Shown piece by piece: positions 36,315-52,656 of a DNA stretch of 64,000 nt. The translations under genes were made by a program, and so were the position numbers. The notes under the pieces are model-generated. The model was not told where the DNA came from. It searched no databases and saw nothing but the letters and a program-made list of their open reading frames with translations. Each line of letters starts with the position of its first letter. The stretch's first letter is position 1. Source of the stretch: Myxococcota bacterium. Its GTDB lineage: Bacteria > Myxococcota > JACRCW01. The stretch lies in NCBI GenBank assembly GCA_040752415.1, contig JBFMGU010000023.1:349-64348 (forward strand), in the 5' to 3' direction.

Positions 36315-36533
36315 GGAGGACCCCGGAAAGCCTCCGGTTTGTAGACCCGCCGCGCGCCCGGCACCAGTCCAGCGACGTTCTCCTTTCGACATTTCCGTCC
36401 CGCGCGGCCAAGGTCACGCTTGCTGGACGCGGGCGTTGCTCGTCGTCAGCAGGGCGGATTGTCGTCGGTCTTGACAGGTAGGATGTGCGCTCCTAGCGTC
36501 GCCCACCTGTCCTCTTTCCTCGGAGAGCGTCCC

Positions 36534-36785
36534 ATGACCCGCATCAATCCGAATCAGGTTGCCAACAAGGCCGTCAGCCAGGCCCTGGACAACGGTGTCT
36601 CCGTGCAGACGCTGCGCCAGAACGGCGTGGCCCTGCTGACCAAGCAGCTGCAGATGGACGGCATCCTGCCGCCGGGGATGAGCCAGCAGCAGCTGGACCA
36701 GGTGCGCATGGCGCTGGCCCTGGCCATTGAGCAGCTTGCCGCCAACACGCAGCCCGCCGACGTCACCGGTGGTGTGACGGCCTGA
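36534..36785 (+). CDS. Small helical protein (84 aa), candidate scaffold/precursor peptide of the downstream operon
   Basis: MTRINPNQVANKAVSQALDNGVSVQTLRQNGVALL...ANTQPADVTGGVTA, ATG at 36534. A GC hairpin plus T-run follows at 36798-36838. Confidence 0.5.
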   Translation: MTRINPNQVANKAVSQALDNGVSVQTLRQNGVALLTKQLQMDGILPPGMSQQQLDQVRMALALAIEQLAANTQPADVTGGVTA

Positions 36786-36797
36786 ACCAGTTTCCTC

Positions 36798-36838
36798 CGT
36801 CGGTACCCGCCTTCCTCGCGGGTCCCGACGTTTCCCCC
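36798..36838 (+). terminator. Stem-loop plus T-run (attenuator/partial terminator) between the small protein gene and the enzyme genes
   Basis: CGTCGG(36798-803)/CCGACG(36825-830) and inner ACCCGC(36805-810)/GCGGGT(36818-823), loop CTTCCTC, followed by TTTCCCCC. Confidence 0.4.
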
Positions 36839-36852
36839 GACGGAATCCCCGC

Positions 36853-37350
36853 ATGCCAACCGAGCCGTCCGAGAAGGACCTGCAGCTTGCGCAGGACATC
36901 CTGAACATCTTTGACCAGCAGGACGAGAGCGGCGAGTACCTCTTCCCTGACGAGGAGGTCCGTCACGTCCTGCCCCTGTTGATCCTGGGCTCCGGCCTCA
37001 AGCCCGACGAGTGCAGCCCCGCGGTGCAGGAAGTGCTGGGCGAGTTTGCGCAACTGGCCGGCCTGGACATGAAGGCCTCCGCCGACGAGATCAGCGCGCA
37101 GGTGAAGGCGTTCTACGAGGAGTACCCGCCGGATGAGACGCTGCTGGGCGGCTTGCAGGCGCTGCTGCGCGAGAACGCGGCAGGAATGCAGGAGCTGGCC
37201 AACAAGGCCGCGCAGCGCGTGACGGGGCGGGAGGAAAGCAACGTTCCGCTCTCGGCGCGCAAGCCTGAGAAGGGCGCCGTCAAGGGTGGTGCGCTGGCCC
37301 GCATGAACGTCGACGGCGCGATGAAGAAGAAGGACGCGAAGAAGAAGTGA
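36853..37350 (+). CDS. Acidic helical hypothetical protein (165 aa) with a Lys-rich C-terminus
   Basis: MPTEPSEKDLQLAQDILNIFDQQDESGEYLFPDEE...KKKDAKKK. Its stop overlaps the next gene start (TGATG). Confidence 0.55.
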   Translation: MPTEPSEKDLQLAQDILNIFDQQDESGEYLFPDEEVRHVLPLLILGSGLKPDECSPAVQEVLGEFAQLAGLDMKASADEISAQVKAFYEEYPPDETLLGGLQALLRENAAGMQELANKAAQRVTGREESNVPLSARKPEKGAVKGGALARMNVDGAMKKKDAKKK

Positions 37351-38729
37351 TGTCCGTGCGCGCCCCGACGCGGCGTCTCCCCGAGGATGAAGGCCGGCTG
37401 GCCGCATTCCGCGAGGCGCTGACACGACACGAGGGCGAAGCTGTGGACGCGGTGGAACGCGCGCGCGAGTCCCTGGCCAAGCGAGACCTGCTGCTGCTGG
37501 AGAATCCCGGCGTTCCGCTCCGGCCGCTGTTCATCCCGCGCTCGCGTCTGCAGGCGATCTGCGGCGCGCTGCACCAGAACATGCTCGCCCTGGGGCGCAA
37601 GCTGGACGCGCTTCTCGACGATCCCGCTGCTCTCGAGGAGGCGCTCCCGTTGCCGCGCGAGTGGTGGGACGCCTTGGACGCGCGTGCGAGCCTGCGTCAT
37701 CCCGACTTTGGCCTGGTGCTCCGCCCCGACGGCTTCCTCTACGACGACGCGTTCCTGCTGACCGAGCCCAACATGGGCAACGGCTACCTCATCAGCTGCA
37801 CGTATCCCGACGCAGTGCACGAGGTGTTCGCAAGCTCGCCGGTGTTCGCGTCGCTGGGGTGGGACCCGCATGCGCTGGTGCAGCGGCCTTTGATGCACAT
37901 CCGGAAGATGCTGCGGCGCAAGGTTCCGTCGACGACGACGCGACCGCGCATCGCGCTGCTCTGGCATCACGGCGAGCACGAGATCATCCGTGAATGGAAC
38001 GAGCGCACCCAGGGCATCCTGCGCTACGTGCCGGAGATCCTGCGCCAGGACGGCTGGGACGTGGTGTTCGCGCACGAGGACGAGCTTTCCGTCGACGACG
38101 AGGGAAACGCGCGCCTCAAGGGCGACCAGCGCGTGGACGTGGTGTTCCAGATCCCCATCGGCACGTTCTTCCTCTACGAACCCGCGCGTTTGTCGACGGA
38201 CCTGGCGCATCTCCGCGGTCCCAGCGTGGGAAACGCGCCGCTGCTGCAGCCGCTGGTCCACGTTGGCATCGACAAGGGCACCATGCCCCTGATGGGCACG
38301 CAGGACTGCTGGCCCACGACGACACCCGACGGATTCCGCGTGGACCTGGTCCCCACGCACTACCCCACGCCTGAGCGCGCCGCGGAATACCGGATGCGCA
38401 AGGACGCCTGGGTGCTGAAGCGCAGCTTCGAGGGGAAGGATACGCACGTGGGCTGCGCCACGCATGGTCGAGTCTGGAACCGCACGCTGCAGACGGCGTT
38501 GAGCACGGCGGAGTACGTCATGCAGCCGTACGTGCCCATGAGCGTGGCGGACATTCCCGTCGTCATGGATGGGCGCGTGGAGTGGGTGGAGAGCAGCGTG
38601 GAGCTGTCCCTGCTGATCATCGACGGTGCGTTCGCCGGTGGCTTCGCGCGGTTCCTGCCGGCTGCCGACGGAGTGGTGCTCTCCCCTCCCCCGCCCGGCA
38701 TGGGATTCACCCTGGTGATGGACGTGTGA
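37350..38729 (+). CDS. Glutathionylspermidine-synthase-like / circularly permuted ATP-grasp family ligase (paralog 1)
   Basis: LLLLENPGVP resembles the LLExNADTP motif of GspS/YgiC-type enzymes, and DAWVLKRSFEGKDTHVG resembles their YVVKPxxxREGxxV ATP-binding loop. 459 aa. Confidence 0.65.
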   Translation: MSVRAPTRRLPEDEGRLAAFREALTRHEGEAVDAVERARESLAKRDLLLLENPGVPLRPLFIPRSRLQAICGALHQNMLALGRKLDALLDDPAALEEALPLPREWWDALDARASLRHPDFGLVLRPDGFLYDDAFLLTEPNMGNGYLISCTYPDAVHEVFASSPVFASLGWDPHALVQRPLMHIRKMLRRKVPSTTTRPRIALLWHHGEHEIIREWNERTQGILRYVPEILRQDGWDVVFAHEDELSVDDEGNARLKGDQRVDVVFQIPIGTFFLYEPARLSTDLAHLRGPSVGNAPLLQPLVHVGIDKGTMPLMGTQDCWPTTTPDGFRVDLVPTHYPTPERAAEYRMRKDAWVLKRSFEGKDTHVGCATHGRVWNRTLQTALSTAEYVMQPYVPMSVADIPVVMDGRVEWVESSVELSLLIIDGAFAGGFARFLPAADGVVLSPPPPGMGFTLVMDV

Positions 38730-38732
38730 TGC

Positions 38733-41183
38733 ATGCGTGAAGCGCCGCCTCTCGTCGCGTTGGAGCATGGCTGGTCCCTGTGGCCGACCTTCGAGCTTCG
38801 CGGCGCAGGCTTCCCGGTGGCGCTCCTCGATCCGCTGCATCATGCACCGCTGATTGAAGCCGTGACGACGGTGGAAGCCGCCCGTTCCCGTGCCAGTGAG
38901 CTGCGGGCCGTGGCGATGCGTGCGCTGCAAACCGCGCGGCAGTCCAGTGGCGACCGCAAGGCGTGGAACGCGTTCACCGACGAGGTGCGGCGCGGCACCC
39001 GAAACGTGACGACGGGGAGTCCGGAGGTGGACCCTGCCCTCCGCGCCCTCGATCACGCCCGCGACGAGCTGGCCAACGCGGAAGCGGCGGTGGAATCCGC
39101 GTGGGCCGCGTGCCTCGAGACCACCGACGCGAAGCTGCGGGAATGCGCGCTGTCGTCGGATTTTCGCCGGGCCGTGTTGTTGCAGAACCGCGGCGCGCTT
39201 TCCGGCGGCATCGACGCGTGGCTGCGCACAACACCGGGTACCGAGGATCACACCGCGCGGCGTGCGCGTCTCGCCGTCACCAGCTACCTGCAGCGCTACA
39301 CGACGAAGAATGACACAGTGGGCTTCTTTGGTCCGGTGGGCTGGGGCCATTTTGTCGACGACGCCAACGCGCTGACCCAGCGGGCGGGCCCCGCGCTCGT
39401 GGACCGGACTGCGGTGCACCTGGAGCCGTGGGCTGTTGCCGCGGTGGCGGATGCGGTGCTTCCGTCGGTGATGGACCGCCTGGTTCCTACGCTGTCACCC
39501 CGCGTGCGCCTCGAGGGAACCGAGCTTCACGGCGTTCCCACCCGCTCGCTGCGAGGGACACGCACGCTCACGCCGGCCATGCGCGAGTTGCTGGAACGGG
39601 TGGACGGTCGGCGGACCTACGCGGAGATCGCCGGTGACGACGAGAAACGCGCACGGGTACAGGAGCTGGTGCAGCAAGGGGTCGTCCGGCTGCGACTTGA
39701 TGTGCAGGTCACCACGTCTCCACAGGACGCACTGTGTCGGCAGCTGGACGCGCTCGGCGCGGTCGAGGCGAGGAACACGGTCCGCAGCTTCACCGGCGCC
39801 CTCGATGCGGTGCAGGCCCACGTCCACGACGACAAATCGCTGGGCCCTGCGCTGCAGACCCTGGACGAGCGCTTTGCCTCCATCACCGGGCGCGAGGCCA
39901 CGCGACATGCCGGTCAGACCTACGGGAGCCGCACACTGATCTACGTGAACTGTCGGCGAGATCACGAGCTGCATCTGGGCAAACCGGTCCTGGCCGCATT
40001 GCGTTCACCGATGAGCTTGCTTCTCGTCGCTGCGCGGTGGTTCACCTACGAGGTCTCCCGCGGCTTCCTGCGCGAGCTGCACAAGATCCACGCCAGCCTC
40101 TCGCGCGTCATGGGCCCGCGCGTTCCGCTGCTGCACGTCTATCACCGTCTCATTCCGCTCTTCGCGCATCCTCCCGCCACGTTCATCGCCGACGCGCGTC
40201 GACGCACGGAAGCCCGCTGGACCGAAGTGCTGGCGCTGCCGGATGGGGAGGCACACGTCGTGGAGCTGGATGCGTCCACGCTGGGCCCGCGCGTCCGGGA
40301 TGCCTTTGCTGCTCCGCACCCGGGCATGCCCAGCGCGCGACACCACTGCCCGGATGTCCTGTTCTGTCGTCGTGAGGATGGCTCCTTGATGCCGGTTCTC
40401 GGCGAGATCCACGCCGGTGTGAACACGCTCGCCGTGCTGCAAGCGGTGGACATGTCGCGGGATGCGGACGAGTTGCGGGCGCTCTACCGTCGGGACCTTC
40501 CGCCGCCGGTGGTCTCCGAGCTGCAGCACGAGGACTACGCACTGTGCGCGCATGACTCCCTGCTCGACGCGGGCGATCTCCACGTGGACACGGGCTCTCG
40601 TTACATCTCGTGGCTTCCGCCGGAGCGCACGGTGCTGCTGTCGGACCTGGATCTCGTCGTAGAGGACGGGTTCCTGCGTGTGCAGTCCAACCGCGACGGC
40701 TCCGTATTCGACGCGCTCCACCTGCTCGAGCGCATGGTCCGCCTCAACGCCACCACCGAGTTCCACCTGCCCGTGCGCGCCCCGCACCAGCCGCGTGTCG
40801 TCGTCAATGGCGTGGTGCTGATCCGGGAGACGTGGACCCTGCAGCGGGACGCGTTCGAGTCGTTGGTCGACGCCACCGGTCCCGCGCGCATGCGGGCGGC
40901 GCACGCGTTGCGCCACACGCACGGAATGCCGCGTCACCTGTTCGCGCGAACGCCCGGGGAGCACAAGCCGCTGTACGTCGACGTGGAATCTCCGGCGAGC
41001 CTGGAGGTGCTGGTGCGTGCGCTGCGCGAGGCGCCCTGGGTCAAGCTCTCGGAGATGCTCCCCGCGCCGGAGCACGCGTGGCTTCTGGATGCGCGTGGGC
41101 AGCGGTATGTGTCGGAGTGTCGGATGGTGGCGGTGGACCCGGTGCCCGCGCGCCCGATCTCCGTGGAGGAAGCGCTGGCATGA
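38733..41183 (+). CDS. LanB N-terminal (glutamylation) domain-like protein lacking an elimination domain: candidate PEARL (peptide-aminoacyl-tRNA ligase)
   Basis: 816 aa. The N-terminus WSLWPTFELRGAGFPVALLDPL and the internal TKNDTVGFFGPVGWGHF resemble the Lant_dehydr_N conserved core. No SpaB_C-like C-terminal domain or partner ORF is present nearby. Confidence 0.65.
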   Translation: MREAPPLVALEHGWSLWPTFELRGAGFPVALLDPLHHAPLIEAVTTVEAARSRASELRAVAMRALQTARQSSGDRKAWNAFTDEVRRGTRNVTTGSPEVDPALRALDHARDELANAEAAVESAWAACLETTDAKLRECALSSDFRRAVLLQNRGALSGGIDAWLRTTPGTEDHTARRARLAVTSYLQRYTTKNDTVGFFGPVGWGHFVDDANALTQRAGPALVDRTAVHLEPWAVAAVADAVLPSVMDRLVPTLSPRVRLEGTELHGVPTRSLRGTRTLTPAMRELLERVDGRRTYAEIAGDDEKRARVQELVQQGVVRLRLDVQVTTSPQDALCRQLDALGAVEARNTVRSFTGALDAVQAHVHDDKSLGPALQTLDERFASITGREATRHAGQTYGSRTLIYVNCRRDHELHLGKPVLAALRSPMSLLLVAARWFTYEVSRGFLRELHKIHASLSRVMGPRVPLLHVYHRLIPLFAHPPATFIADARRRTEARWTEVLALPDGEAHVVELDASTLGPRVRDAFAAPHPGMPSARHHCPDVLFCRREDGSLMPVLGEIHAGVNTLAVLQAVDMSRDADELRALYRRDLPPPVVSELQHEDYALCAHDSLLDAGDLHVDTGSRYISWLPPERTVLLSDLDLVVEDGFLRVQSNRDGSVFDALHLLERMVRLNATTEFHLPVRAPHQPRVVVNGVVLIRETWTLQRDAFESLVDATGPARMRAAHALRHTHGMPRHLFARTPGEHKPLYVDVESPASLEVLVRALREAPWVKLSEMLPAPEHAWLLDARGQRYVSECRMVAVDPVPARPISVEEALA

Positions 41184-42385
41184 GCGAGAACCGCAGTCGC
41201 GCCGCCCGCGTGGTGGCCGAGGCCACGCCGCACTACCTGGAAGCGCGTCGACGTGGGCTGATGCACGTGACGCTGGAGAAGCGCGACGGCAAACGCGTGA
41301 CGCTCCCGGGCGGACGCACTGTCACGGAGTTCATCAACTGCTCCTACCTGGGACTGGACACGCATCCCGGCGTGGTGCGCGCTGCGCAGAAAGTGGTGGA
41401 GGACTGGGGCGTGCACTTCTGCTGCGCGCGCAGCCGTTTCTCCATTGGTCCCAACCGTGAGCTCGAGGAGGCGTTGGGGAGCTGGATGGGCGGGCGCGCC
41501 ATCACGTTCCCGTCGGTGACGGCGACGCATCTCAGTGTGATGCCACTCCTGGCGTCGGGCGCGCTGTATGGCGACGGACAGCCCATGCGCCTGGTGTTCG
41601 ACCGCTTCGCGCACGCGTCCATGGCGTCGTTGAAGGCGATGCTGCGTGAGCACGCGCGCGTGGAGACCATTGAACACAACGACCTGGATGCGCTGGAAAC
41701 GCAGATGCAGGACGCGCGCTCCGTCGGGGAGAGGCCGGTCTACATCGCGGACAGCGTGTACAGCATGGGCGGGCGGTGTCCGCTGACGGAGGTCCTCTCG
41801 CTGGCCCAGCGCTACGACGCGCGCCTGTATCTCGACGACGCACACGGCACCTCGATCTTCGGTCCGCAGGGTCAGGGCCCGGTGTTCGAGGCGCTGGGTG
41901 GGAAGATCCCGGAGCACGTGGTCTTCACGTACTCACTGTCCAAGGGTTTCGGCACCAACGGCGGCGGGGTGCTCCTCCCGACGAGGGCGCAGGAAGACGT
42001 GGTGCGCCTGTTCGGGCAGACCTACGCGTTCAGCGCCTCGCTGGATTTCTCGATCATCGCCGCGGCGCAGGCGTCCCTCGCGCTTCACGTCGACGGGACG
42101 GTGGAACGGTTGCAGCGCACGCTGCGTGAACGGGTGGCCTTGTTTGATTCGCTGGTGCCCGGACGCCAGGAGGGGTTCAGCCCCATCCGCATGGTGCGTA
42201 TGCGCACCCCGGAGCACGCCCTCGACGTGGCGGAGCGGTTGATCGGGCTCGGGTACTTCGTGACGGTGGCCATGTTCCCCGTGGTCCCACGTGACGCTCC
42301 GCAGCTCCGCCTCTGTCTTTCCGTGGGACACTCGGAAGGCGACATCCGCGGGCTGGTTGCCGCGCTGAAGGAAGCCGGTGCATGA
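41180..42385 (+). CDS. PLP-dependent alpha-oxoamine synthase family enzyme (8-amino-7-oxononanoate synthase / serine palmitoyltransferase-like)
   Basis: FINCSYLGL...DDAHGTSIFG...FTYSLSKGFGTNGGGV, the PLP-lysine motif of the AONS family. ATG at 41180 overlaps the previous stop (ATGA). Confidence 0.85.
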   Translation: MSENRSRAARVVAEATPHYLEARRRGLMHVTLEKRDGKRVTLPGGRTVTEFINCSYLGLDTHPGVVRAAQKVVEDWGVHFCCARSRFSIGPNRELEEALGSWMGGRAITFPSVTATHLSVMPLLASGALYGDGQPMRLVFDRFAHASMASLKAMLREHARVETIEHNDLDALETQMQDARSVGERPVYIADSVYSMGGRCPLTEVLSLAQRYDARLYLDDAHGTSIFGPQGQGPVFEALGGKIPEHVVFTYSLSKGFGTNGGGVLLPTRAQEDVVRLFGQTYAFSASLDFSIIAAAQASLALHVDGTVERLQRTLRERVALFDSLVPGRQEGFSPIRMVRMRTPEHALDVAERLIGLGYFVTVAMFPVVPRDAPQLRLCLSVGHSEGDIRGLVAALKEAGA

Positions 42386-43635
42386 CCACGCTGCGCAACG
42401 TCGTCACGCGTTCCGCGGCGGCCATTGTTGACGCGCTGGAGAACGCGCGCACCCAGCACCAACTTGGCGGGCTGCCCATGCTTGCCGCGCCCGTGGTGGT
42501 CCCACGCCAGGAGCGCACCCGACTGGCGCGGATTGCCGAGCTGTTGCGCACCGCGTTGCTCCGACTGCGTGGCGACGATCCCTGGCCCGGTGACGTCCCA
42601 CGCCCACCCCACTTTGACGACCTGCTCTCGTCGGAGCCGCGCAACCTTCCTCCGCTTGGCGCATGCCGCTTTGACGCCCTCTACGATCCCGCGAGCGGCG
42701 CCCTGTCCTTCGTCGAGGTGCAGGCGGGAGATCCTTCGGGTGCGCCGTGGGTGGACGGCATTGTCGCGGCGCTCTCGTCGGTGCACGTGCTGGAACCCTG
42801 GATGAAGCACGCGGATCACCTGATCCCGGCGCACCTGCGTCACGTCCAGCGCACCTATCGCGAAGTGTGGCGCGGCCAGGATGACCCTCTCGTCGCGTTC
42901 ATCAACGAGGACGGCAGCTTCGTCCGCAGCGACCACGAGCTGTGGGCCCACCTGTTCCGTCGTCACGGAGTGCGCGCCGTCTGTGCGGATCCCCGCGCGT
43001 TCACCTGGGACGGCGCTCACGCGCACCTCGACGGGCACACGGTGGACCTGGTGATCCGCGACTCCCACGACGAGCTCACCATCTCCCCCGGTCCCGACGC
43101 CACCCGCCCCTTACGCTCCGCGCTGCAGGCCGGTCTGCCGCGGTTCAATCCGTTCGCGGACGTCTGGTTCGACGACAAGACCTGCTTCGTGGACCTGTGG
43201 CACCACGCGGACCGCTTTCCCGCCGAGGAGCGCGAGCTCATCCGACGACACATTCCCCGCACGGAGCGTGTGACGCCGGACCTCACGGAGTACCTGCGCC
43301 AACACCGGGAAGACTGGGTGCTGAAGCCCGCCGATGGTTACGGCGGCTTTGGCATCGTGGTGGGCCGTGACGTCGACGATTCGCGCTGGAGCGCGGCCCT
43401 GGAGGAGGCACTGCGCAAGCGCACGGTGGCGCAGTTCTACGTGGACGTGCCGCGCGTGGCGGTGGCGCGAACCCGGGCTCACGACGTGGAATGGCGCGAC
43501 CAGCACCTCACGGTGAGCCTGTGGTGCCACGGCGGGGAGTTCTCAGGCGCCTACGCGCGCGCGGGGGACGGCAAGGTGGTGAACGTGCACCAGGGCGGCG
43601 GAATCGGCCCCGTGGTCTTCACCGACGAGTGGTGA
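42382..43635 (+). CDS. Glutathionylspermidine-synthase-like / circularly permuted ATP-grasp family ligase (paralog 2)
   Basis: SFVEVQAGDPSGAP and EDWVLKPADGYGGFGIVVG ... VVNVHQGGGIGPV motifs. ATG overlaps the upstream stop (ATGA). 417 aa. Confidence 0.65.
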   Translation: MTTLRNVVTRSAAAIVDALENARTQHQLGGLPMLAAPVVVPRQERTRLARIAELLRTALLRLRGDDPWPGDVPRPPHFDDLLSSEPRNLPPLGACRFDALYDPASGALSFVEVQAGDPSGAPWVDGIVAALSSVHVLEPWMKHADHLIPAHLRHVQRTYREVWRGQDDPLVAFINEDGSFVRSDHELWAHLFRRHGVRAVCADPRAFTWDGAHAHLDGHTVDLVIRDSHDELTISPGPDATRPLRSALQAGLPRFNPFADVWFDDKTCFVDLWHHADRFPAEERELIRRHIPRTERVTPDLTEYLRQHREDWVLKPADGYGGFGIVVGRDVDDSRWSAALEEALRKRTVAQFYVDVPRVAVARTRAHDVEWRDQHLTVSLWCHGGEFSGAYARAGDGKVVNVHQGGGIGPVVFTDEW

Positions 43636-45387
43636 TCACTCCGCGCCCATCCACGCCTTGCGCAGCTCCACCTGCTCGGCGGGAGCGTTCTCACGACGCT
43701 TGAGGTACGCACAGGTCTGCGGCGCGGGCGCCAACGTCACCGTCGCGGTGCGCAGCTCATCACGACGGAAGAAGTGCACCTCCTTGGCCTCACCCGGCTT
43801 CATCTCCTCCAGGCGCGCCATGAAGTTCCCGTCGGCAACCCGCCAGCCACCGAGCGCCACCAGCTGATCTCCCGGCCCCACGCCCGCCGTCGCCGCCGGA
43901 CCACCCGGGTGCACGTTCTGCACGGTGCCGTCGCGCTTGATGGCTGCGCCGAAGAACGGCCGGGAGGCACCGTTGCCCTTGCCGGGGGTACCGCCTTTGT
44001 CGTCGGCGCCTTCGGGCGCGCGCGTGAGATACTCCAGCCCGACGGAAGCAAGGTGCTCGGCCAGCGGCAGCTCCTCACGCGAACGCACCGTCAGGTCAAA
44101 GAACGACTTCAGCGAGCGACCGGCAACCTCCGCCGCCGCGGCTTCCACCTCGCCCTCCTCGAGCCCCTCGCCGCGGTCCTGCGTCCACTTCCACAGGAGG
44201 CGCATGACGTCGTCAAGAGACTTCTTCCCGCTGCTCTCCTTGCGCAGCAGCAGGTCCAGGCACAACGCCACCAGCTCACCCTTCAGGTAGTAGCTGATGG
44301 TGCTGTTCACGGTGTGCTCGTCCTGCCGGTAGTACTTCACCCACGCATCCAGCGACGACTCCTCGAGGCTGTGCGCCTTGCGCCCCGGCGTCTGGTTGAG
44401 CTGCGTGCTGAGCTCACCAAGCACGGTGAGGTAGCGGTCCGCCGTCATCAACCCCGCGCGACGCGTGTTGAGGTTGTCGTAGTAGCTGGTGAAGCCTTCC
44501 ATGGCCCACAGCAGCCTCGTCGGGTTTTCGCGCGTGTAGTCGTAGGGGCTGAACGCCTTGGGCTTGATGCGCTTGACGTTCCAGAGATGGAAGTGCTCGT
44601 GCGTCACCAGCGTGAGGAAGCTCTCGTATTCCTTCTCAGGACGGAACGCGAAGCGGGGATAGAGCAGCGCCGTGGAGTCGCGGTGCTCCAGGCCGCCGCG
44701 GCCGCTGTCGGTGAGATGCGTGATGAACAGGTAGCGCTGGTAGGGCAGCCCGCCGAACACCTGCGCGTTCTGCTCGACGAGCTTCGGCAGATCCGCCACC
44801 AGCTTCTGCTCGTCCTCGTTGCCGCGGTTCCACAGCACCAGCTCATGCGGAATGCCGCGCACGGAGAATGACAGCGTGCGGTGCGTCCCCATCTCCACGG
44901 GACAGTCCACGAGGTGATGGAAATCCTCCGCCTCGAACTGGTTCTCCGACGTGGAAGGCAACGTGGTGGCCACCTTCCATCCCGCGGGCGGATGGATGGA
45001 CAGCGTGCAGCGACGTGCCTCCGCGCCCTCCGGCACCATGAACAGGGACACGCCGTTGAAGAAGCCGTGCGTGTTGTCCAGGTGCGCGGTGCGCACGGTC
45101 AGCTCATGCGCGTAGACGCGGTAGCTGACGGTGAGGTCGCCGTTGGCGTCGGAACGCAGCTCCCACTGGTGCGGGGAGACCTTGGTGGCGGTGACGTTGC
45201 CGCCCGCGCGCGTGGCCTGCAGTCCCTCCACGTGTCGACCGTGCTCACGCAGCAGGTAGCTCCCCGGCGTCCAGCGCGGGAAGTTGAGTCGCACCACGGA
45301 GGGCGCGTCCTTCAGCAGGAGCGTGACGTGGAAGAGGTGGGAGTTGGGGTCCGGGACGTGGACGCTGTACGCAAGCGGTGCGGGCAT
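43636..45387 (-). CDS. M61 family glycyl aminopeptidase with a C-terminal PDZ domain
   Basis: HEHFHLWN (HExxH) with downstream Glu, plus a PDZ-like C-terminus (…HPGGPAATAGVGPGDQLVALGG…). The stop abuts the stop of the upstream + operon with 0-bp spacing. Confidence 0.85.
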   Translation of the reverse strand: MPAPLAYSVHVPDPNSHLFHVTLLLKDAPSVVRLNFPRWTPGSYLLREHGRHVEGLQATRAGGNVTATKVSPHQWELRSDANGDLTVSYRVYAHELTVRTAHLDNTHGFFNGVSLFMVPEGAEARRCTLSIHPPAGWKVATTLPSTSENQFEAEDFHHLVDCPVEMGTHRTLSFSVRGIPHELVLWNRGNEDEQKLVADLPKLVEQNAQVFGGLPYQRYLFITHLTDSGRGGLEHRDSTALLYPRFAFRPEKEYESFLTLVTHEHFHLWNVKRIKPKAFSPYDYTRENPTRLLWAMEGFTSYYDNLNTRRAGLMTADRYLTVLGELSTQLNQTPGRKAHSLEESSLDAWVKYYRQDEHTVNSTISYYLKGELVALCLDLLLRKESSGKKSLDDVMRLLWKWTQDRGEGLEEGEVEAAAAEVAGRSLKSFFDLTVRSREELPLAEHLASVGLEYLTRAPEGADDKGGTPGKGNGASRPFFGAAIKRDGTVQNVHPGGPAATAGVGPGDQLVALGGWRVADGNFMARLEEMKPGEAKEVHFFRRDELRTATVTLAPAPQTCAYLKRRENAPAEQVELRKAWMGAE

Positions 45388-45456
45388 GGTGCGCTCATAG
45401 GCCGTGCGCGGCCGGAGGCAAGCTTAGTGGGAGGCTTGAGGGAATTGGCAAGGTGC

Positions 45457-46746
45457 TCACGCCGGCTTCACGGGCTGCTTCACCGACGTGGCAATGAACG
45501 CGCTGAGCAGGAGGATGAGGCCACCGGCAAGGTACGGCGCCTGGTAGCCCAGCTGCTCGAAGAGGATTCCACCGAAGACCGGCCCCATGGCCCGCGCCAA
45601 CGCCGCCAGCGACTGCCCGAGGCCAAGCGTGCCGCCCTGCTCGGTGGGATCCGCACTCTGGGAGAGCAGGCTGCTCATCGACGGATTCACGAGCCCATTG
45701 GCGCTGCTCATGAGGAGCACCACCGGGAACGTCATGGCGTAGCTCGGCGCAAAGGGCAGCAGCGCGAACGCCAACGCGTTGCACGCGAGCCCGGTGATGA
45801 GCAGCTTCCGCTCACCGAAGCGTCGCGCCAGCTTGCCAATGAGCCCGCCCTGGATGATCGCGGAGATCACACCCACGAGGACGAGGAAGAGCCCGGTGAG
45901 CTTGGATGCTTCCGCCGCCGCCGCGGGGGTTCCCGGCGTGGCCGCCACAAAGCGCCGCTCGACGAGAAGCCCGAAGGTGGCCTCCATCTTGGACCACCCC
46001 AGCAGCACCACGAAATACAGCGCGAGCAACACGCCCACGTTGGGCCGCTGGCTGGCGCGCTTGAGCGCATCCAGGGACAACCGTCGTCGTGACGTGGGCG
46101 CGGGGTGCGTCCCCTTCTTGAGGCTCTCCGGGAGCACCACCAACGCGAACACGAAGTCGACGAGCGCGAGCCCCCCCGCCACGAAGGCCGGCAGCGACGC
46201 GTGATTGAACAGCGCGTTCGGATCACCGCCGCTGAGGTGCTCCCCCAACGACGCGGCGGCCGCGCCCACACCGGGCCCGATGATGAACCCGAAGCCGAAT
46301 GCCATGCCGAGGAGGCCCATGCCCTTGGCGCGGTTCTCGGGCGTGGTGACGTCGGCAATGTAGGCCTGCGCGGTGGGAATGTTGGCGTTGCCAATGCCGG
46401 AGAGGATGCGACACGCGAACAGGAGCGCCAGGCTGTTCACCAGGCCCAGCAGCCCGTAGCCCACCGCGCTCATCAACACGCTGACCAGGATCACCGGGCG
46501 TCGACCAATGCGGTCGGAGAGCCGCCCCCACGCCGGCGCGAACACGAACTGCATCAACGAGTACGACGCCCCCAGCGCCGTCACGACGGTGGGCGTGGCG
46601 CCGAACTGCTCCGCGTAGAACGGGAGGATGGGGATGATGATCCCGAAGCCCAGCAGGTCCAGGAACACCGTGAAGAAGATGACGAACAGCGGGCTGCGTC
46701 CGACGGGAGCAGCACCCGGGGCAGACTTCGTTTCGGTCGCGACCAC
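45457..46746 (-). CDS. MFS transporter (Tet/TCR-like, 12 TM)
   Basis: …SPLFVIFFTVFLDLLGFGIIIPILPFYA…GRLSDRIGRRPV… MFS motif A. Start assigned to a GTG near 46746; the track ORF 45457..46953 has an Arg-rich 5' extension. Confidence 0.8.
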   Translation of the reverse strand: MVATETKSAPGAAPVGRSPLFVIFFTVFLDLLGFGIIIPILPFYAEQFGATPTVVTALGASYSLMQFVFAPAWGRLSDRIGRRPVILVSVLMSAVGYGLLGLVNSLALLFACRILSGIGNANIPTAQAYIADVTTPENRAKGMGLLGMAFGFGFIIGPGVGAAAASLGEHLSGGDPNALFNHASLPAFVAGGLALVDFVFALVVLPESLKKGTHPAPTSRRRLSLDALKRASQRPNVGVLLALYFVVLLGWSKMEATFGLLVERRFVAATPGTPAAAAEASKLTGLFLVLVGVISAIIQGGLIGKLARRFGERKLLITGLACNALAFALLPFAPSYAMTFPVVLLMSSANGLVNPSMSSLLSQSADPTEQGGTLGLGQSLAALARAMGPVFGGILFEQLGYQAPYLAGGLILLLSAFIATSVKQPVKPA

Positions 46747-47010
46747 GACGGGAAGGTAGACCAGAGCAGGGGTGGCCAGCGCAAGCACGCGCCGCGACGG
46801 TCCGGTCGCCGTTCGTCGACGAGAGGCCGGATGCGCGCGGCATCGTCCCGACGTCGACGCGAGCCCGTCGGCCCTCACCCCACCGTTCCCGTTCGCGCGT
46901 CGAGGCCAGCGTTGCGGCGACGGATGCGGCGAATCCGCGTTGGTTCTCCGCAAGAGGTGCGGATAATCGGTTGAGGTTTCTCCGCCCCCGGGGAATATTC
47001 ACCGCACACC

Positions 47011-48126
47011 ATGCGGAGAAGCGGCTACATCTGGGACCTGGACACTTGGCCGACCTTCCGATGGGAGGCCGCGTCCTTGTTGGAGCCTCTTGCGGAAGCG
47101 CGCCATCTGCAGGGGCGTCTGCTGGGCCGCATGTCCGAGCTGGGATTCGACCTCCAGCGTGAGGCCCACGTCCAGGCCCTGACGACGGAAGCCGTGAAGA
47201 CCTCCGAGATCGAGGGTGAGCACCTGAACGTGGAGAGCGTGCGCTCGTCGCTGGCGCGGAGGCTGGGCGTTCCCTGGGCGGGCTCCGAGGTGGTGGACCG
47301 CAAGGTGGAAGGCGTCGTGGAGATGATGCTCGACGCCACCAGCAACTTCGCCGCCCCGCTGACCGCGCGCCGGCTGTTCGGCTGGCATGCCGCGCTGTTC
47401 CCGACGGGATACTCCGGGATGCACCGGATCATCGTCGGTGGCTGGCGTGATGATCGGGAAGGTCCGATGCGCGTGGTGTCCGGGCCGCTGGGCCATCAAC
47501 GCGTGCACTACGAAGCACCACCCGCCACGCGCCTCGACGAGGAAATCAACCGGTTCCTGGAGTGGTTCAACGCGCCCATGGTGGGCGACGGTGTGCTCCG
47601 CAGCGGAATCGCGCACCTGTGGTTCCTGACCATTCATCCCTTTGAGGACGGAAACGGACGCATCGCGCGTGCGATTGCCGACCAGGCGCTCGCCCAATGC
47701 GAGGGTGCCGCCAACAGGTTCTACAGCGTCTCACGGCAGATCAACGCGGAGCGCAAGACCTACTACGACGTGCTCGAGCGCACCCAGCAGGGCGACGGCG
47801 ACATCACCGCGTGGCTGCAGTGGTACCTCGCGTGCTTCTCCCGCGCCCTGACCAGCGCGGACGTGGTGGCGGGTCAGGTCTTGCGCAAGGCTTCGTTCTG
47901 GAAGCGTCACGCGGACAAATCCATCACCGAGCGGCAGCGAAGGGTGCTCAACCGCTTCCTCGACGGATTCGAAGGCAAGCTCACGGCAAGAAAGTGGGCC
48001 GCGTTGGGGAAATGTTCCGTCGACACCGCGCAAAGGGACATCCAGGCGCTGCTGGAGCTGGACATGCTCCGCAGACTCCCAGGCGGCAGCAAGAACACCG
48101 CCTATGAGCCGGCATGGGAGACCTGA
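47011..48126 (+). CDS. Fic/DOC family protein
   Basis: HPFEDGNGRIARA (the Fic HPFx[DE]GNGR motif) plus a C-terminal winged-helix-like region. Confidence 0.9.
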   Translation: MRRSGYIWDLDTWPTFRWEAASLLEPLAEARHLQGRLLGRMSELGFDLQREAHVQALTTEAVKTSEIEGEHLNVESVRSSLARRLGVPWAGSEVVDRKVEGVVEMMLDATSNFAAPLTARRLFGWHAALFPTGYSGMHRIIVGGWRDDREGPMRVVSGPLGHQRVHYEAPPATRLDEEINRFLEWFNAPMVGDGVLRSGIAHLWFLTIHPFEDGNGRIARAIADQALAQCEGAANRFYSVSRQINAERKTYYDVLERTQQGDGDITAWLQWYLACFSRALTSADVVAGQVLRKASFWKRHADKSITERQRRVLNRFLDGFEGKLTARKWAALGKCSVDTAQRDIQALLELDMLRRLPGGSKNTAYEPAWET

Positions 48127-48215
48127 GGCCTCGCTCACGACGTGAAAGCTCACGCCTCCGGCGCGTTCTGCGAAGCAGCCTCCGCGGGCTTCCCGCCCCT
48201 CTCCACGGGCTCCTT

Positions 48216-49148
48216 CTACTCCTTCTTCTCCGGGATCACCGCGCTCGCCACAATCGAGGCCACCAGCACCGAGACAATCACTCCCAGGCTCGCCGCCGGC
48301 GGGATGTGGATGTCCCAGATGCCCAGCAGCATCTTCACGCCCACGAACGAGAGCACGATTCCCAAACCCGTCTTGAGGAAGCGGAACAGGCCCACCCACC
48401 GCGCCAGCAGGAAGTACAGGCTGCGCAGGCCCATGATCGCGAAGATGTTCGACGTGAACACCACGAACGGGTCCGCGGTGATGGCAAAGATCGCCGGGAT
48501 GGAGTCCAGCGCGAAGATCACGTCGGAGAACTCCACCGCCAGCAGGCAGATGAACAACGGCGTGGCCATGCGCCGGCCGTTCTCCTCGACGAAGAACTTC
48601 ATTCCGTGCATCTGGCTCGTGGTGGGGATGATCTTCTGCGCCAGGCGCACCATGGCGTTCTGCTCCGGGTGCTCCTCCTCCTCGGCTTCCTTGGTGAACA
48701 GGATCTTGAGGCCGGTGAAGAGCAGGAACGCGCCAAACAGGTACAGCACCGCGTGGAAACGCTGCACCAGGGCGGCGCCGGCCAGGATCATGGTGATGCG
48801 CAGGATGAGCGCGCCCATGACGCCCCAGAAGAGCACGCGGTGCTGCAGCTCCTGCGGGATGCGGAAGGCGCTGAAGATGATGACGAAGACGAAGATGTTG
48901 TCGACGGAGAGCGAGTACTCGATGACCCAGCCGGTGAGGAACTCCAGCCCGATCTTGGCGCCGAACTTCAGCCACATGCCCGCGCCAAAACACAGCGCCA
49001 GGCTGACCCAGATGGCGGTGGTGCGCAGGGCCTGACGGGCGCCAATGACCTGCTGGCCCCGGTGCATGATGCCCAGGTCCAACGCCACCATCACCAGGAC
49101 AAACGCCAGGAAGCCGACCCACAGCGCAGGGGAGCCAACGGATTCCAT
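48216..49148 (-). CDS. TerC family integral membrane protein
   Basis: Multi-TM, with …EYSLSVDNIFVFVIIF… and …EFSDVIFALDSIPAIFAIT…, the paired TerC motifs. Confidence 0.9.
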   Translation of the reverse strand: MESVGSPALWVGFLAFVLVMVALDLGIMHRGQQVIGARQALRTTAIWVSLALCFGAGMWLKFGAKIGLEFLTGWVIEYSLSVDNIFVFVIIFSAFRIPQELQHRVLFWGVMGALILRITMILAGAALVQRFHAVLYLFGAFLLFTGLKILFTKEAEEEEHPEQNAMVRLAQKIIPTTSQMHGMKFFVEENGRRMATPLFICLLAVEFSDVIFALDSIPAIFAITADPFVVFTSNIFAIMGLRSLYFLLARWVGLFRFLKTGLGIVLSFVGVKMLLGIWDIHIPPAASLGVIVSVLVASIVASAVIPEKKE

Positions 49149-49250
49149 GTCCTCTCCAGGCCCCGGCCTCGTGGGCGGCGGGGCGGGAGCGCTCTAGCGG
49201 AGTGTGGAGGTGTTGCGCCACCACGCTCGGGCACCAGGTGGCGCGGGCGG

Positions 49251-49580
49251 TCAATCCGCGGCTGCGCGTTCCTCGGCCTCGGAGTCGCCGGATTCCGCCT
49301 GGGCCTCGTCCTCAAGGTCCAGCGCGTCGGAGGCAAAACGGGCGGCCACGGTCTCGGCCTGCAGCGCGCTGAGGATCACGTGGTCGCTGTCGGTGATCAC
49401 AATGGAGCGGGTCCGGCGCCCCTGCGTGGCATCCACGAGCTTCCCTGCGCTCTTGGCCTGGTCCTTGAGGCGCTTCATGGGCGCGGAGGCGGGCGAGACA
49501 ATGGCCACCACCCGGCCCTTGGGGACCACGTTTCCAAACCCCAGGTTCAACAGGGATAGCGACGAGATACCGTTCTTCAC
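49251..49580 (-). CDS. RemA-like (DUF370) small regulatory protein
   Basis: [73 protein letters not shown] closely parallels B. subtilis RemA. GTG start proposed at 49580. It is the only credible part of the 918-aa minus ORF 49251..52007. Confidence 0.7.
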
Positions 49581-49727
49581 GCCCCCGGACGCTAGGTCGC
49601 CGGGCGCGCGCGGGCAAACTTCTGCACCAACCCGCCCCAGGCCGCGCCACAGCCCCTTGACGCGGTCCGTCCGTGGGTCGGATGCGCTCCGGCGCCAGGT
49701 GGCGTTAGGCTTCCTGCCCACGCTGCC

Positions 49728-51998
49728 ATGTCCGCGAGCCCTTCCGACTTCGAGACCGTCACCCGCTCCGAGCACGGGACGCCATTCGGCAAGTATGAGC
49801 TGCTGCACCGTCTGGCGGTGGGCGGGATGGCGGAGATCTTCCGCGCCCGCTCCAACGCGCTGGGCGGCGTGATCCGCACCTGCGTCATCAAGCGGATCCT
49901 CCCGGAGCTGTGTGAGAACCGCCAGTTCGTCAGCATGTTCATCGACGAGGCGCGCATCCTCATCGGCCTGCACCATGAGAACATCGTGCGGCTGTATGAC
50001 TTCGGGCAGGTCGACGGCAGCTACTACATGGCCCTGGAGTTCGTGTCCGGTTGTGACCTGGTGGCGGTGCTGGAGCGCATCTACCGCAACGGCCAGGGCA
50101 TGCATCCGCTGGCGGCGGCGTGGGTGGGGCGCGGCCTGTGTGAGGGGCTGCACCACGCGCACATCCAGCAGGACGCCGCGGGCCGCCCCCTGGGCATCGT
50201 CCACCGCGACGTCAGTCCCCACAACGTGCTCCTCAGCTGGGAGGGCGACGTCAAGGTCACCGACTTCGGCATCGCGCAGGCCAAGCACAAGCTGACCCTC
50301 ACCACGCCGGGCACGGTGATGGGCAAGTTCGCGTACATGGCGCCGGAGCAGGCCGCCGGCACCAAGGTGGACGCGCGCGCGGACGTGTTCGCCGTGGGCG
50401 TGGTGCTGCACGAGGCGCTGGCGGGTCAGCGGCTGTTCGCGGGCTCCACGCCCATTGAGACCATTGGCAAGCTCATGCACCAGCAGGTGCAGCCGCCCTC
50501 GACGGTGAAGCCGGGGATCCCGCGGGAGCTGGACCAGGTGGTGATGCGCGCGCTGGAGAAGGATCCGGCGGCGCGCTTCCAGAGCGCGGAGGAGATGGGC
50601 GCGGCGTTGCTGGACGCCATGGGGCGCGCGGGCGGCTACACCGTTGAGGAGTTCAGGACCTACCTCGAGCAGATGATGATGGTGGACCCGTCCGCCGTGG
50701 AGAAGCGGGACGGCACCCAGAGCCTGCGCGCCAAGGTCCCTGCCCCCGCCAAGCGCCCCGCCACCGCGCCGCGCGTGGCCACCGGCGTCACCCCGGACAA
50801 GGAGCTGGGTCGCCTGGCCCAGAGCCTGCGACAGGACCCCAACGTCTGGACCCTGGTGGCCATGGGCGCGCGCCACCTGGAGCTGGGCAGGAAGGAGCTG
50901 GCGGCCAGCGCGTTCCGGGTGGCGGCGGGCGCGTTTGCCTTCCGCGGTCTGCTCATCCAGGCGCTGGTGGCGCACGAGCGCGCGCGTCCCCTCATCACGC
51001 CCGAGCAGCGCGAGGAGGACATCAACTTCCTGATCTCCCTGCGCCAGGCCAACCTGGCCGTGCTGGACCAGTTCATCTCCCGCGTCGACGTGGGCGGCTT
51101 CTATGAGCTGCTCCGCCGCGCCGACGAGGAGGCCTTTGGTGAGAACAGCGCCTCCACGCGCATCCTCACGCCGGTGCCGCTGTACGGCACGGTGGCTCCC
51201 TCGGACCTGCCGCGGTTGCTGGGCGTGGCGCGCGTGCGTCGCTATGCGCCGGGCCAGGTGATCGTGCGGGAGGGTGAAGAGGGAGACACGCTGTTTGCCG
51301 TCGGTGAGGGGCGCGTGGTGGTGTACTGCAAGCCGCCGGCGGAAGCGCGCAGTGCCGAGGACCGCGTGTATCTCTCGTCGCTGAGCGAGGGCGACTTCTT
51401 CGGTGAGTTCGGCTTCCTCTCCGGTGAGCCGCGCACCGCCAGCGTGGAGGCCGTGCTGGCCACCTGGGTCCTCGAGATCGACCGCAGCCAGGTGGAGGAG
51501 CTGGTCGCCCTCAGCCCGGAGATGGCGGGGCCGCTGCTGGACTTCTACAAGGCGCGCGTCGTTGAGCTGCTGATGGCCAAGAGCCCGCTGTTCGCGCCGC
51601 TGCCGCCGGAGGATCGTCGCCACCTGCTGAGCAGGGCGCGGCCGCTGCGCTACAAGGACAACGAGATCATCATCCAGGAAGGCGACGACGGCGACGCGTT
51701 CTTCTTCATCAAGCAGGGAGAGGTGGAGGTCTTCAGCGAGCGCGCCGGCATCCCCATCTTCATCAACAAGCTGCGGGAGGGGCAGTTCTTCGGGGAGATT
51801 GCGGCCATCAAGGGCACGCGTCGCACCGCCAGCATCCGCGCCATGGGCGACGTGGAGCTGCTCACCTTCTCCCGCGCCGACCTCCAGGCCCTCATCGAGA
51901 AACGGCCGCAGCTGCGCGCTTTGCTCGAGGCCGCCATCATCGACCGCGTCACCGAGGCGGTGGAGCAGGTGAAGGCCGCCACGGAGCTGCTGCGCTGA
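49728..51998 (+). CDS. Ser/Thr protein kinase with two C-terminal cyclic-nucleotide-binding domains
   Basis: Hanks kinase motifs (GGMAEIF…, [23 protein letters not shown]) are present. Two cNMP-binding cores follow ([19 protein letters not shown] and [19 protein letters not shown]). Confidence 0.9.
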
Positions 51999-52012
51999 CG
52001 CGCGCACCGACT

Positions 52013-52492
52013 ATGTTCCCCACCATGCCGCGCCTCTCCCTCCTCCTTGGCACCCTGCTCCTCGTCCTGGCCTGTGAGTCGGACCAGAAGGCGCAGCGCA
52101 AGGATGAGAAGCTCCCGCCGCTGCGGCCCCCCGCCGAGAACCTCTTCTGCGCCGTGGGTGGTGACGACGGCGTGGGCATGCCGCCCAAGCCCACCACGCC
52201 GGAGCAGCTGTCCAAGGAGGAGGTGGACCAGGTCTGGGTGCCGCGCAGCAAGGTGCTGCTGGAGTGCTACGAGGACCGCGTCCGTCGGGGCTACGCCATC
52301 AAGGGGCACGTGGGGCTGCGCTTCTTCGTCAACGAGAAGGGCTTCGTTCAGCAGATGTGCCTCGTCGAGGATGAGACCGGCGACAGCGAGCTCATCAACT
52401 GCATCTTCGGCGAGGTGGGCACCTGGAAGTTCCCGGAGAGGCCCGCGCGCACGGAGGTGCGTCGGCGGTTGACCTTCAAGCTGCCCAAGTGA
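52013..52492 (+). CDS. Lipoprotein, hypothetical
   Basis: MPRLSLLLGTLLLVLAC lipobox, 159 aa, coding-like. Confidence 0.55.
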   Translation: MFPTMPRLSLLLGTLLLVLACESDQKAQRKDEKLPPLRPPAENLFCAVGGDDGVGMPPKPTTPEQLSKEEVDQVWVPRSKVLLECYEDRVRRGYAIKGHVGLRFFVNEKGFVQQMCLVEDETGDSELINCIFGEVGTWKFPERPARTEVRRRLTFKLPK

Positions 52493-52598
52493 GGGGGAAA
52501 CCCCGGAAAGGAAGTCAGAAGGCGACTCCGCGACGACGGCGGGAGCACCTTCTGACTTCTGTATTCTGACTTCTGACTTCCTCTCCAGGGGTTTCCCC
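52493..52598 (+). other. Nested inverted-repeat element with tandem TTCTGACTTC copies (candidate structured RNA / complex terminator)
   Basis: The outer stem pairs GGGGAAACCCC (52494-52504) with GGGGTTTCCCC (52588-52598). The inner stem pairs GAAGTCAGAAGG (52511-52522) with CCTTCTGACTTC (52548-52559) around a 25-nt loop. Three overlapping copies of TTCTGACTTC at 52550, 52564 and 52571 offer alternative pairings. Confidence 0.5.
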
Positions 52599-52656
52599 GC
52601 CCCAGCAGTTGACGTCGTGCCCGCGGGGAGTTCTCTTGCGGCCAACTCGGAGGCCC

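Follow-up and report, generated by a model that had tools for sequence, protein, structure and literature searches.

The 64,000-nucleotide (nt) stretch of DNA analysed in this study (contig JBFMGU010000023.1 of a metagenome-assembled genome of a Myxococcota bacterium), referred to below as the window, carries at positions 36534-43635 six genes on the plus strand, g1 to g6 (Table 1). Four of them encode enzymes, namely a LanB-like protein resembling the peptide-aminoacyl-tRNA ligases (PEARLs; g4), two ATP-grasp ligases (g3 and g6) and an alpha-oxoamine synthase (AOS; g5), which recur in 41 loci from at least three bacterial phyla. The product of g1 is likely to be a scaffold peptide for these enzymes, and no description of such a gene combination was found in the literature searched, as the preliminary description of the operon had supposed.

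Re-checking of the open reading frame (ORF) map, the translations and the junction sequences upheld most of the six-gene coupled operon claimed in that description: g2 and g3 overlap in the sequence TGATG, g3 and g4 lie 3 nt apart, and ATGA overlaps are present at the g4/g5 and g5/g6 junctions. The claimed coupling does not extend to g1, however, which is separated from g2 by a spacer of 67 nt containing a hairpin. All six frames have a GC content at third codon positions (GC3) of 0.83-0.90 (0.83 in g1) in a genome of 68% GC, and therefore look like real genes.

Table 1. Genes of the operon and features associated with g1 (positions in the window)
Feature	Position	Strand	Remarks
g1	36534-36785	+	83 aa
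g2	36853-37350	+	165 aa
g3	37350-38729	+	459 aa; 460 aa if started at GTG 37347
g4	38733-41183	+	816 aa
g5	41180-42385	+	401 aa
g6	42382-43635	+	417 aa
Possible promoter, TTGACA - 17 nt - TAGCGT	36471-36499	+	Weak; 35 nt 5' of g1; read from the sequence
Ribosome-binding site, GGAGAG	about 36522-36527	+	5' of g1
GC-rich hairpin, 12 bp, followed by GUUU	36798-36830	+	g1-g2 spacer; -25.4 kcal/mol, z = -2.8

The PEARL-like protein g4

The only Pfam match of g4 was Lant_dehydr_N (1.6e-22), and the elimination domain SpaB_C was not detected in this protein even at E<=10. SpaB_C (PF14028) was also missing from the ten genes flanking the operon (about 8-10 kb) and from ten larger, farther genes of the window; no conserved extra gene of this kind occurred across the 41 loci, and the Pfam matches of the examined flanks included no cyclase family. 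These results rule out a cryptic elimination domain in g4 or a split partner encoded in the regions searched, and argue against a class I lanthipeptide or thiopeptide dehydratase.

A word-indexed search of 5.8 billion sequences returned 34 homologues of g4 at E<=1e-5, and an AlphaFold2 model built on 32 homologues reached a pLDDT (predicted local distance difference test) of 93.3. Fold superposition showed that the glutamylation-only proteins TbtB and GodF cover this model end to end; the full-length LanBs MibB, MadB and NisB were matched through their N-terminal domains only. The 816-aa protein is a LanB glutamylation-type protein without an elimination domain, which corroborates the original assignment.

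Two features separate PEARLs from dehydratases, i.e. the lack of an elimination domain in the neighbourhood and the presence of extra residues for ATP-dependent phosphorylation (PMC11212132). In the PEARL TglB the ATP site involves D542, E564 with a conserved His two positions on, and E801/R803 (PMC11117183, PMC11962472). The residues D541, E558-x-H560 and E795-x-R797 of g4 are invariant in 36/36 orthologues, and the spacing of the ExH and ExR motifs is 237 residues in g4 and TglB alike. Moreover, the family profile revealed a PqqD-like recognition element (RRE), the peptide-binding module of pathways for peptides that are synthesised ribosomally and modified post-translationally (RiPPs), embedded in g4 at residues 253-325 (E 2.6e-4). 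Judged by those features of PEARLs that can be computed, g4 appears to be PEARL-like, the ATP-site residues agreeing in form only.

In Sphingomonas sp. MMS24-J45 (L036, 11113-13445) g4 is distributed over two overlapping ORFs, which reflects either a frameshift or a sequencing error; the copy of Rhizorhabdus sp. FW153 (L034) is intact.

The ATP-grasp ligases g3 and g6

Used as single queries, g3 and g6 produced no Pfam, NCBIfam or PDB sequence match above threshold. For g3 there was no Pfam match at all and for g6 there were only sub-threshold ATP-grasp matches, and both proteins are therefore divergent relatives rather than members of the existing models. BLAST comparison of the two gave a weak match over the C-terminal 160 residues (E 7e-9). 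Their family profiles aligned in hhalign over about 390 columns (probability 99.8%, E = 6e-28), which identifies them as full-length paralogues. Among the 48 members of the g6 family, CP_ATPgrasp_2 was recognised in 30 (E<=0.001), CP_ATPgrasp_1 in 18 and GSP_synth in eight.

The AlphaFold2 model of g3 (pLDDT 92.9) was compared with known structures using Foldseek. The top matches were homoglutathione and glutathione synthetases, YjfC, YgiC, 3N6X, GspS, trypanothione synthetase and the E-64 ligase Cp1B (E 8e-15 to 1e-10, template modelling score about 0.5-0.6), with RimK far below the GspS-type proteins. Alignment of the g6 profile on the synthetase domain of Escherichia coli GspS placed R96/D98/E112/Q114/K266 on R316/D318/E330/N332/K498. 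The presence of these catalytic residues in the sequence of E. coli Gss was confirmed; N332 corresponds to Q or N in the g6 family, and the five positions are conserved in 34-37 of 37 g6 orthologues. Of 40 orthologues of g3, 39-40 retain each of the residues R125, D127, E139, N141, K309, K357, Q392, E418 and R434. As alignment of the g3 profile failed to span the catalytic region, R125/D127/E139/N141/K309 were assigned by motif and by spacing, the distance from D to E being 12, equal to that in GspS.

Both g3 and g6 are circularly permuted ATP-grasp ligases of the GspS/glutathione-synthetase type and divergent outliers of this clade. Their initial description as paralogous GspS-like proteins was thus correct, even though neither passes a Pfam threshold alone. 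We also considered whether they could be the published "half-size PEARL-like" proteins, which was ruled out by comparison of g4 with g3 or g6 in hhalign (probability about 1%).

The alpha-oxoamine synthase g5

The product of g5 scored above the cutoffs of Aminotran_1_2 in Pfam and of NF005697 in NCBIfam (374 bits, cutoff 342), and far below those of the equivalog models for BioF, KBL, SPT and ALAS. All of its 46 PDB relatives are AOS enzymes, the best being Alb29 (8XHA) with 188 bits; E. coli BioF reached 110 bits. The motifs HASM, DDAHG and SLSKG are present, and H145, D220, H222 and K255, which binds pyridoxal 5'-phosphate (PLP), are invariant in 35/35 orthologues. As initially assigned, g5 is an intact PLP-dependent AOS of the AONS/BioF-KBL family (fold-type I). 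It belongs to a subfamily (NF005697) that is separate from BioF, KBL, ALAS and SPT and is uncharacterised. The nearest solved relative, Alb29, converts L-glutamate and several acyl-coenzyme A (acyl-CoA) substrates into aminoketones (PMC11906848).

Conservation of the gene set

Homologue look-ups, together with a single search of the g3 profile against 185,579 species genomes, yielded a non-redundant set of 41 related loci, which belong to Myxococcota, Acidobacteriota and Alphaproteobacteria. The gene g4 is present in all 41, g6 in 37 and g5 in 35 of them, and at least four of the cases in which g5 or g6 was missed are contigs that end short of the gene set. In nearly all loci g3 is directly followed by g4; exceptionally, a minus-strand gene intervenes in eight loci of the Archangium/Myxococcus type, and in L039 the two genes are on opposite strands. 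In most loci g5 does not adjoin g4.

Three gene orders were distinguished. Layout I (g1 g2 g3 g4 g5 g6) occurs in the window and in L002, L005 and L014, with g6 displaced in L006, L009 and L024. Layout II (g5 g6 [peptide] g3 g4) is found in many Myxococcaceae. Layout III comprises g5, a gene for a zinc-dependent alcohol dehydrogenase, an unknown 297-aa gene, g6, genes for an alpha/beta hydrolase, a 2-oxoglutarate (2OG) oxygenase and a small protein, g3 and g4; its hosts are Thermoanaerobaculia and Alphaproteobacteria, including the cultured strains Rhizorhabdus sp. FW153 and Sphingomonas sp. MMS24-J45. The occurrence of three gene orders across three phyla argues for selection on the set and not on synteny, and the fact that this set has persisted despite rearrangement and in different phyla strongly supports the view that it forms one functional system. 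The conserved unit is a small peptide together with g3-g4, g5 and g6. The four enzymes are found elsewhere, but the six genes of the initial description are not the unit, since their order varies and g2 was detected in only 10/41 loci.

The dehydrogenase, oxygenase and hydrolase of layout III are tailoring enzymes typical of a biosynthetic cluster. In L036 (4533-9627) the Zn-dependent dehydrogenase, the 297-aa protein, an Abhydrolase_3 protein and the 2OG-Fe(II) oxygenase are encoded between the oxoamine synthase and g3, and homologous segments are present in L016, L018, L019, L021, L026, L034, L035 and L037. In the versions from Sphingomonadales (L036, 223-3233; L034 and L037) the BioF-like gene is directly preceded by genes for a pepsin-like aspartyl protease and two avidin-family proteins. 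By analogy with streptavidin and stravidin, these neighbours hint that the product could target biotin metabolism.

Two further loci deserve mention. The 53,442-bp contig that holds P0123 encodes an 87-aa ORF, a g3-like ligase and, on the opposite strand, two g6-like ligases, with neither a PEARL nor an oxoamine synthase, and represents a reduced variant of the cluster. A complete layout-I cluster is carried by L014 (JBBCJA010000024.1), a contig binned as Selenomonadaceae, which is out of line with the other hosts; mis-binning or horizontal transfer may be responsible.

The candidate scaffold peptide g1, and g2

The product of g1 has no Pfam or NCBIfam match and contains no Cys, and towards its C-terminus a helix (LAANTQP) precedes a short tail with GGVTA as its last residues. 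With an overall identity of about 38%, the orthologues from L002 and L005 share the motif LAA(N/G)TxP and end identically in GVTA, and other layout-I loci contain syntenic ORFs of 90-113 aa ending in GLLE, GRPLE, GPVA or GPVR. In total, a small ORF with a clade-conserved tail is located upstream of g3 or g2 in 31/41 loci, the window included. In layout II the g6-g3 spacer encodes Pro/Lys-rich peptides of 50-57 aa (MxKRIGP...GWxP...KP(L/V)E), which were found by direct reading of the spacers, ORF clustering being too noisy in high-GC DNA. Layout III has proteins of about 105-120 aa or peptides of about 40 aa, ending in DRPV, DRPVE, GRPIE, RTVVE, PLE or GTE. A Thr in the helix-end motif is conserved among the layout-I peptides and is missing from those of layouts II and III.

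A small ORF that is fixed in position and most conserved at its extreme C-terminus fits a PEARL scaffold peptide. The PEARL BhaB7 needs two features of its peptide BhaA, a C-terminal helix and a short tail, and the C-terminus of g1 parallels both. Its sequence and position thus make g1 a likely scaffold or carrier peptide, a role that the preliminary description overlooked.

The hairpin 3' of g1 (Table 1) represents an arrangement common for precursor-peptide genes. In L005 this position is occupied by a canonical terminator hairpin and in L002 by hairpins, while L009 has none. In the window it possibly acts as a partial terminator or attenuator that sets the peptide-to-enzyme ratio.

The protein encoded by g2 carries a conserved motif, DVRHxLPLL, and a Lys-rich C-terminus. 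A search of 1.84 billion proteins gave homologues in 176 cluster representatives at E<=1e-3; neither g2 itself nor a 55-sequence profile retrieved a Pfam or PDB relative, and g2 had none in NCBIfam.

In the Archangium-type locus L023 (6930-7394), which has no recognisable g1, the start of g5 coincides exactly with the end of a 154-aa ORF, whose tail (...GGGGGGDMPEDGHIPPPGDDDAPF) is acidic and rich in Gly and which may be the carrier in this subgroup.

Genomic setting of the operon

Upstream, the operon is bounded by a divergent gene for a 1092-aa protein. The promoter-like sequence preceding g1 did not pass a consensus scan and is for this reason a candidate only. No riboswitch or tRNA was found in the window.

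Downstream, a gene for an M61 peptidase adjoins g6 with 0 nt spacing, as had been reported; it is located on the minus strand, however, so the two genes meet stop-to-stop. The encoded enzyme is an M61 glycyl aminopeptidase that carries a PDZ domain; its gene and one for a major facilitator superfamily (MFS) transporter occupy positions 43636-46953 (minus strand), convergent to the operon. The suggestion that the M61 enzyme releases the product cannot be sustained: in addition to its convergent orientation, the gene is missing from every other related locus, which rules it out as a component of the system. The MFS transporter, the Fic protein and the 1092-aa protein of the window are likewise beside none of the other loci.

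The region 47011-53664 encodes a Fic/DUF4172 protein, a TerC membrane protein, a Ser/Thr kinase with two cyclic nucleotide-binding domains and a WD40 protein, which appear to have no relation to the operon. The surrounding genes are ordinary chromosomal or housekeeping ones (type IV pilus pilMNOPQ, gap, pgk, accC, ptsI). With such neighbours and a flat GC content over the region, a horizontally acquired island was ruled out, and an anti-phage defence system was rejected because PADLOC gave no match.

Proposed pathway and alternative explanations

In each of the four enzymes, the fold and the invariant catalytic residues are those of its family. We propose that the operon specifies a pathway similar to those of the pearlins, in which a small molecule is assembled on the C-terminus of the ribosomal peptide g1 by ATP-dependent amide ligations, a reading that we consider to have about the same chance of being right as of being wrong. 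The peptide would serve as a ribosomal scaffold, with a non-proteinogenic small molecule built on its C-terminal carboxylate. A free amino acid and an acyl-CoA would be condensed by g5 to an alpha-aminoketone building block, in the manner of Alb29 with L-Glu. In the manner of GspS and glutathione synthetase, which act on a peptide C-terminus, g3 and g6 would each turn a carboxylate into an acyl-phosphate and join it to an amine, so that the scaffold would be loaded with the aminoketone, with another amine or amino acid, or with both. The new C-terminus would be phosphorylated by g4, which would add a proteinogenic amino acid from an aminoacyl-tRNA. Finally, a protease encoded elsewhere would free the product and regenerate g1; the hydrolase may perform this step in layout III, and the pepsin-like protease in the sphingomonads. 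The order of the chemical steps is speculation. The product is probably a ketone-containing pseudopeptide.

Several observations weigh against this proposal. The scaffold model is weakened most by the eight Archangium/Myxococcus-type loci, in which no g1-like ORF was found, and the last residue of the tail varies by clade (A, E, R or V). The clusters contain no conserved protease, transporter or acyl-CoA-forming enzyme. The correspondence of g4 and TglB residues is one of motif and spacing; HMMER alignments of g4 with TbtB end before the C-terminal ExR region of g4. In addition, some PEARLs use small molecules and leave a peptide encoded beside them untouched (SinA/SinB; SnaE). Relatives of g4 with 30-34% identity (L004, 8886-22574; P0027/P0028) adjoin genes for a luciferase-like monooxygenase and a large nonribosomal peptide synthetase (NRPS), or, in Micromonospora, form a fusion with a thioesterase domain. 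All of these relatives are probably small-molecule PEARLs.

It is in part from these observations that the most serious alternative arises, in which the enzymes act on free small molecules only. An aminoketone acid formed by g5 would be extended by amide bonds through g3 and g6, g4 would add an aminoacyl group from tRNA to the carboxylate of the small molecule, and g1 would be a remnant, a regulator or an immunity or export factor. Precedents are provided by SnaE and SinB1/SinB2, which show that PEARLs also act on small molecules (a point overlooked in the original account), and by SinA, the RiPP-like peptide of the sinefungin cluster, which is dispensable. The NRPS-associated and thioesterase-fused proteins are the next relatives of g4; GspS, glutathione synthetase and Cp1B use small substrates; and the eight loci in which g1 was not detected would be accommodated as well. 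Against this, a small ORF with a clade-conserved tail stays directly upstream of g3 or g2 in three layouts and three phyla, g4 has retained its PqqD-like RRE, and an attenuator-like hairpin follows g1. We regard this explanation as unlikely, although it has to be taken seriously.

A second alternative concerns the acyl donor of g5, which could be the activated C-terminus of the scaffold (an ATP-grasp acyl-phosphate or a PEARL peptidyl-tRNA ester) instead of an acyl-CoA. This is a rather improbable reading, compatible with the lack of a conserved CoA ligase or acyl carrier protein (ACP) in the cluster and with the translational coupling of g4, g5 and g6 in the window. If it is true, a ribosomal peptide would come to end in an alpha-aminoketone, which would be a new way to peptide ketones, and a RiPP-type scaffold would for the first time be the site of a PLP-dependent Claisen condensation.

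Overlapping with this reading, and equally doubtful in our view, is a logic of the LysW type. In LysW systems an amino-group carrier protein with a zinc ribbon and an acidic, EDWGE-like tail is loaded by a ligase of the RimK/LysX type. Here, a dicarboxylic amino acid would be attached through its alpha-amine to the carrier C-terminus by an ATP-grasp ligase, the distal carboxylate would be activated, and g5 would carry out a Claisen condensation on the carrier-bound acyl group. In both cases there is a small protein whose C-terminal carboxylate can be loaded by an ATP-grasp ligase, and most of the carriers identified in this study end in Glu, as LysW does; two such ligases are encoded, yet no CoA ligase or ACP as a source of the acyl donor, and the g4/g5 and g5/g6 couplings in the window would also be in keeping with such a scheme. 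However, g1 has neither a LysW-like zinc ribbon nor an EDWGE tail and ends in Ala in the window, the ligases are of the GspS and not the RimK/LysX type, and the kinase, reductase and aminotransferase set of LysW systems is missing. Furthermore, the nearest solved relative of g5 uses free L-Glu and acyl-CoA, and in most loci g5 is not a neighbour of g4.

It is very improbable that g4 is a Glu-tRNA-dependent glutamylase of the split-LanB type, esterifying a Ser or Thr of g1 (e.g. the Thr of LAANTQP, conserved in layout I but not in layouts II and III) for processing of the ester by other enzymes, since an elimination partner is missing from all loci examined and from their surroundings, the D/ExH/ExR residues linked to ATP use in PEARLs are retained in g4, and the ranking of the glutamylation-only TbtB and GodF as its closest solved structures is expected either way, the PDB holding no PEARL structure according to a review and the fold search of the g4 model returning none.

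Comparison with known systems and significance

The proposed scaffold-based assembly has its closest parallels in the pearlin pathways, represented by TglA/TglB (3-thiaglutamate) and by AmmA/AmmB and BhaA/BhaB (pyrroloiminoquinones). These systems share with the operon a short LanB with an RRE and no elimination domain, putative ATP-site residues at positions matching in motif and spacing, a co-encoded small peptide whose conserved C-terminus comprises a helix and a short tail, and the expected logic of building a small molecule on a peptide C-terminus. The partners differ: two GspS-like ATP-grasp ligases and an AOS are encoded here, whereas known pearlin partners are multinuclear non-haem iron oxidative enzymes, flavoenzymes, a glycine oxidase or more PEARLs. 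The operon also has a single PEARL and no cluster-encoded protease, and its scaffold peptides are unrelated in sequence to those of the pearlins.

The small-molecule PEARLs SnaE, from a cluster of NRPS and polyketide synthase (PKS) genes, and SinB1/SinB2, from the sinefungin cluster, are likewise elimination-less LanB homologues encoded among non-RiPP enzymes. In contrast to these systems, the operon contains no NRPS/PKS or nucleoside machinery, and has a positionally conserved small peptide instead. GspS, YgiC, YjfC and the eukaryotic glutathione synthetase share with g3 and g6 the RxD...Ex(N/Q)...K constellation, the chemistry expected at a peptide C-terminal carboxylate and the fold, for which the lowest Foldseek E was 8e-15; g3 and g6 differ from them in their low identity (about 13-16%), in lacking an amidase domain and in being set in a biosynthetic operon with a PEARL. 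Among stand-alone AOS enzymes g5 is closest to Alb29.

Ketomemicin-type pseudopeptide pathways combine an AONS-like enzyme with an ATP-grasp amide ligase. They resemble the operon in this pairing, which suggests a ketone-containing pseudopeptide, and differ from it in that the operon lacks genes for a special acyl-CoA, uses a different clade of ATP-grasp enzymes and includes a PEARL and a scaffold peptide. The partner enzymes and scaffold peptides are unlike those of all characterised pearlin, NRPS-PEARL and sinefungin pathways, and such a set is not known from ketomemicin pathways.

To conclude, few pearlin pathways are known and each has been a source of new enzymology, while the family described here is uncharacterised and widely distributed. 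Ketone-containing pseudopeptides, which its members would probably produce, represent a common protease-inhibitor motif. It has been proposed that PEARLs descend from an ATP-grasp ligase of the GspS-like type (PMC11117183); as a PEARL is constantly paired here with a ligase of this presumed ancestral type, both chemistries can be compared within one pathway. The small ORF with its clade-specific tails provides a direct experimental handle on this system.

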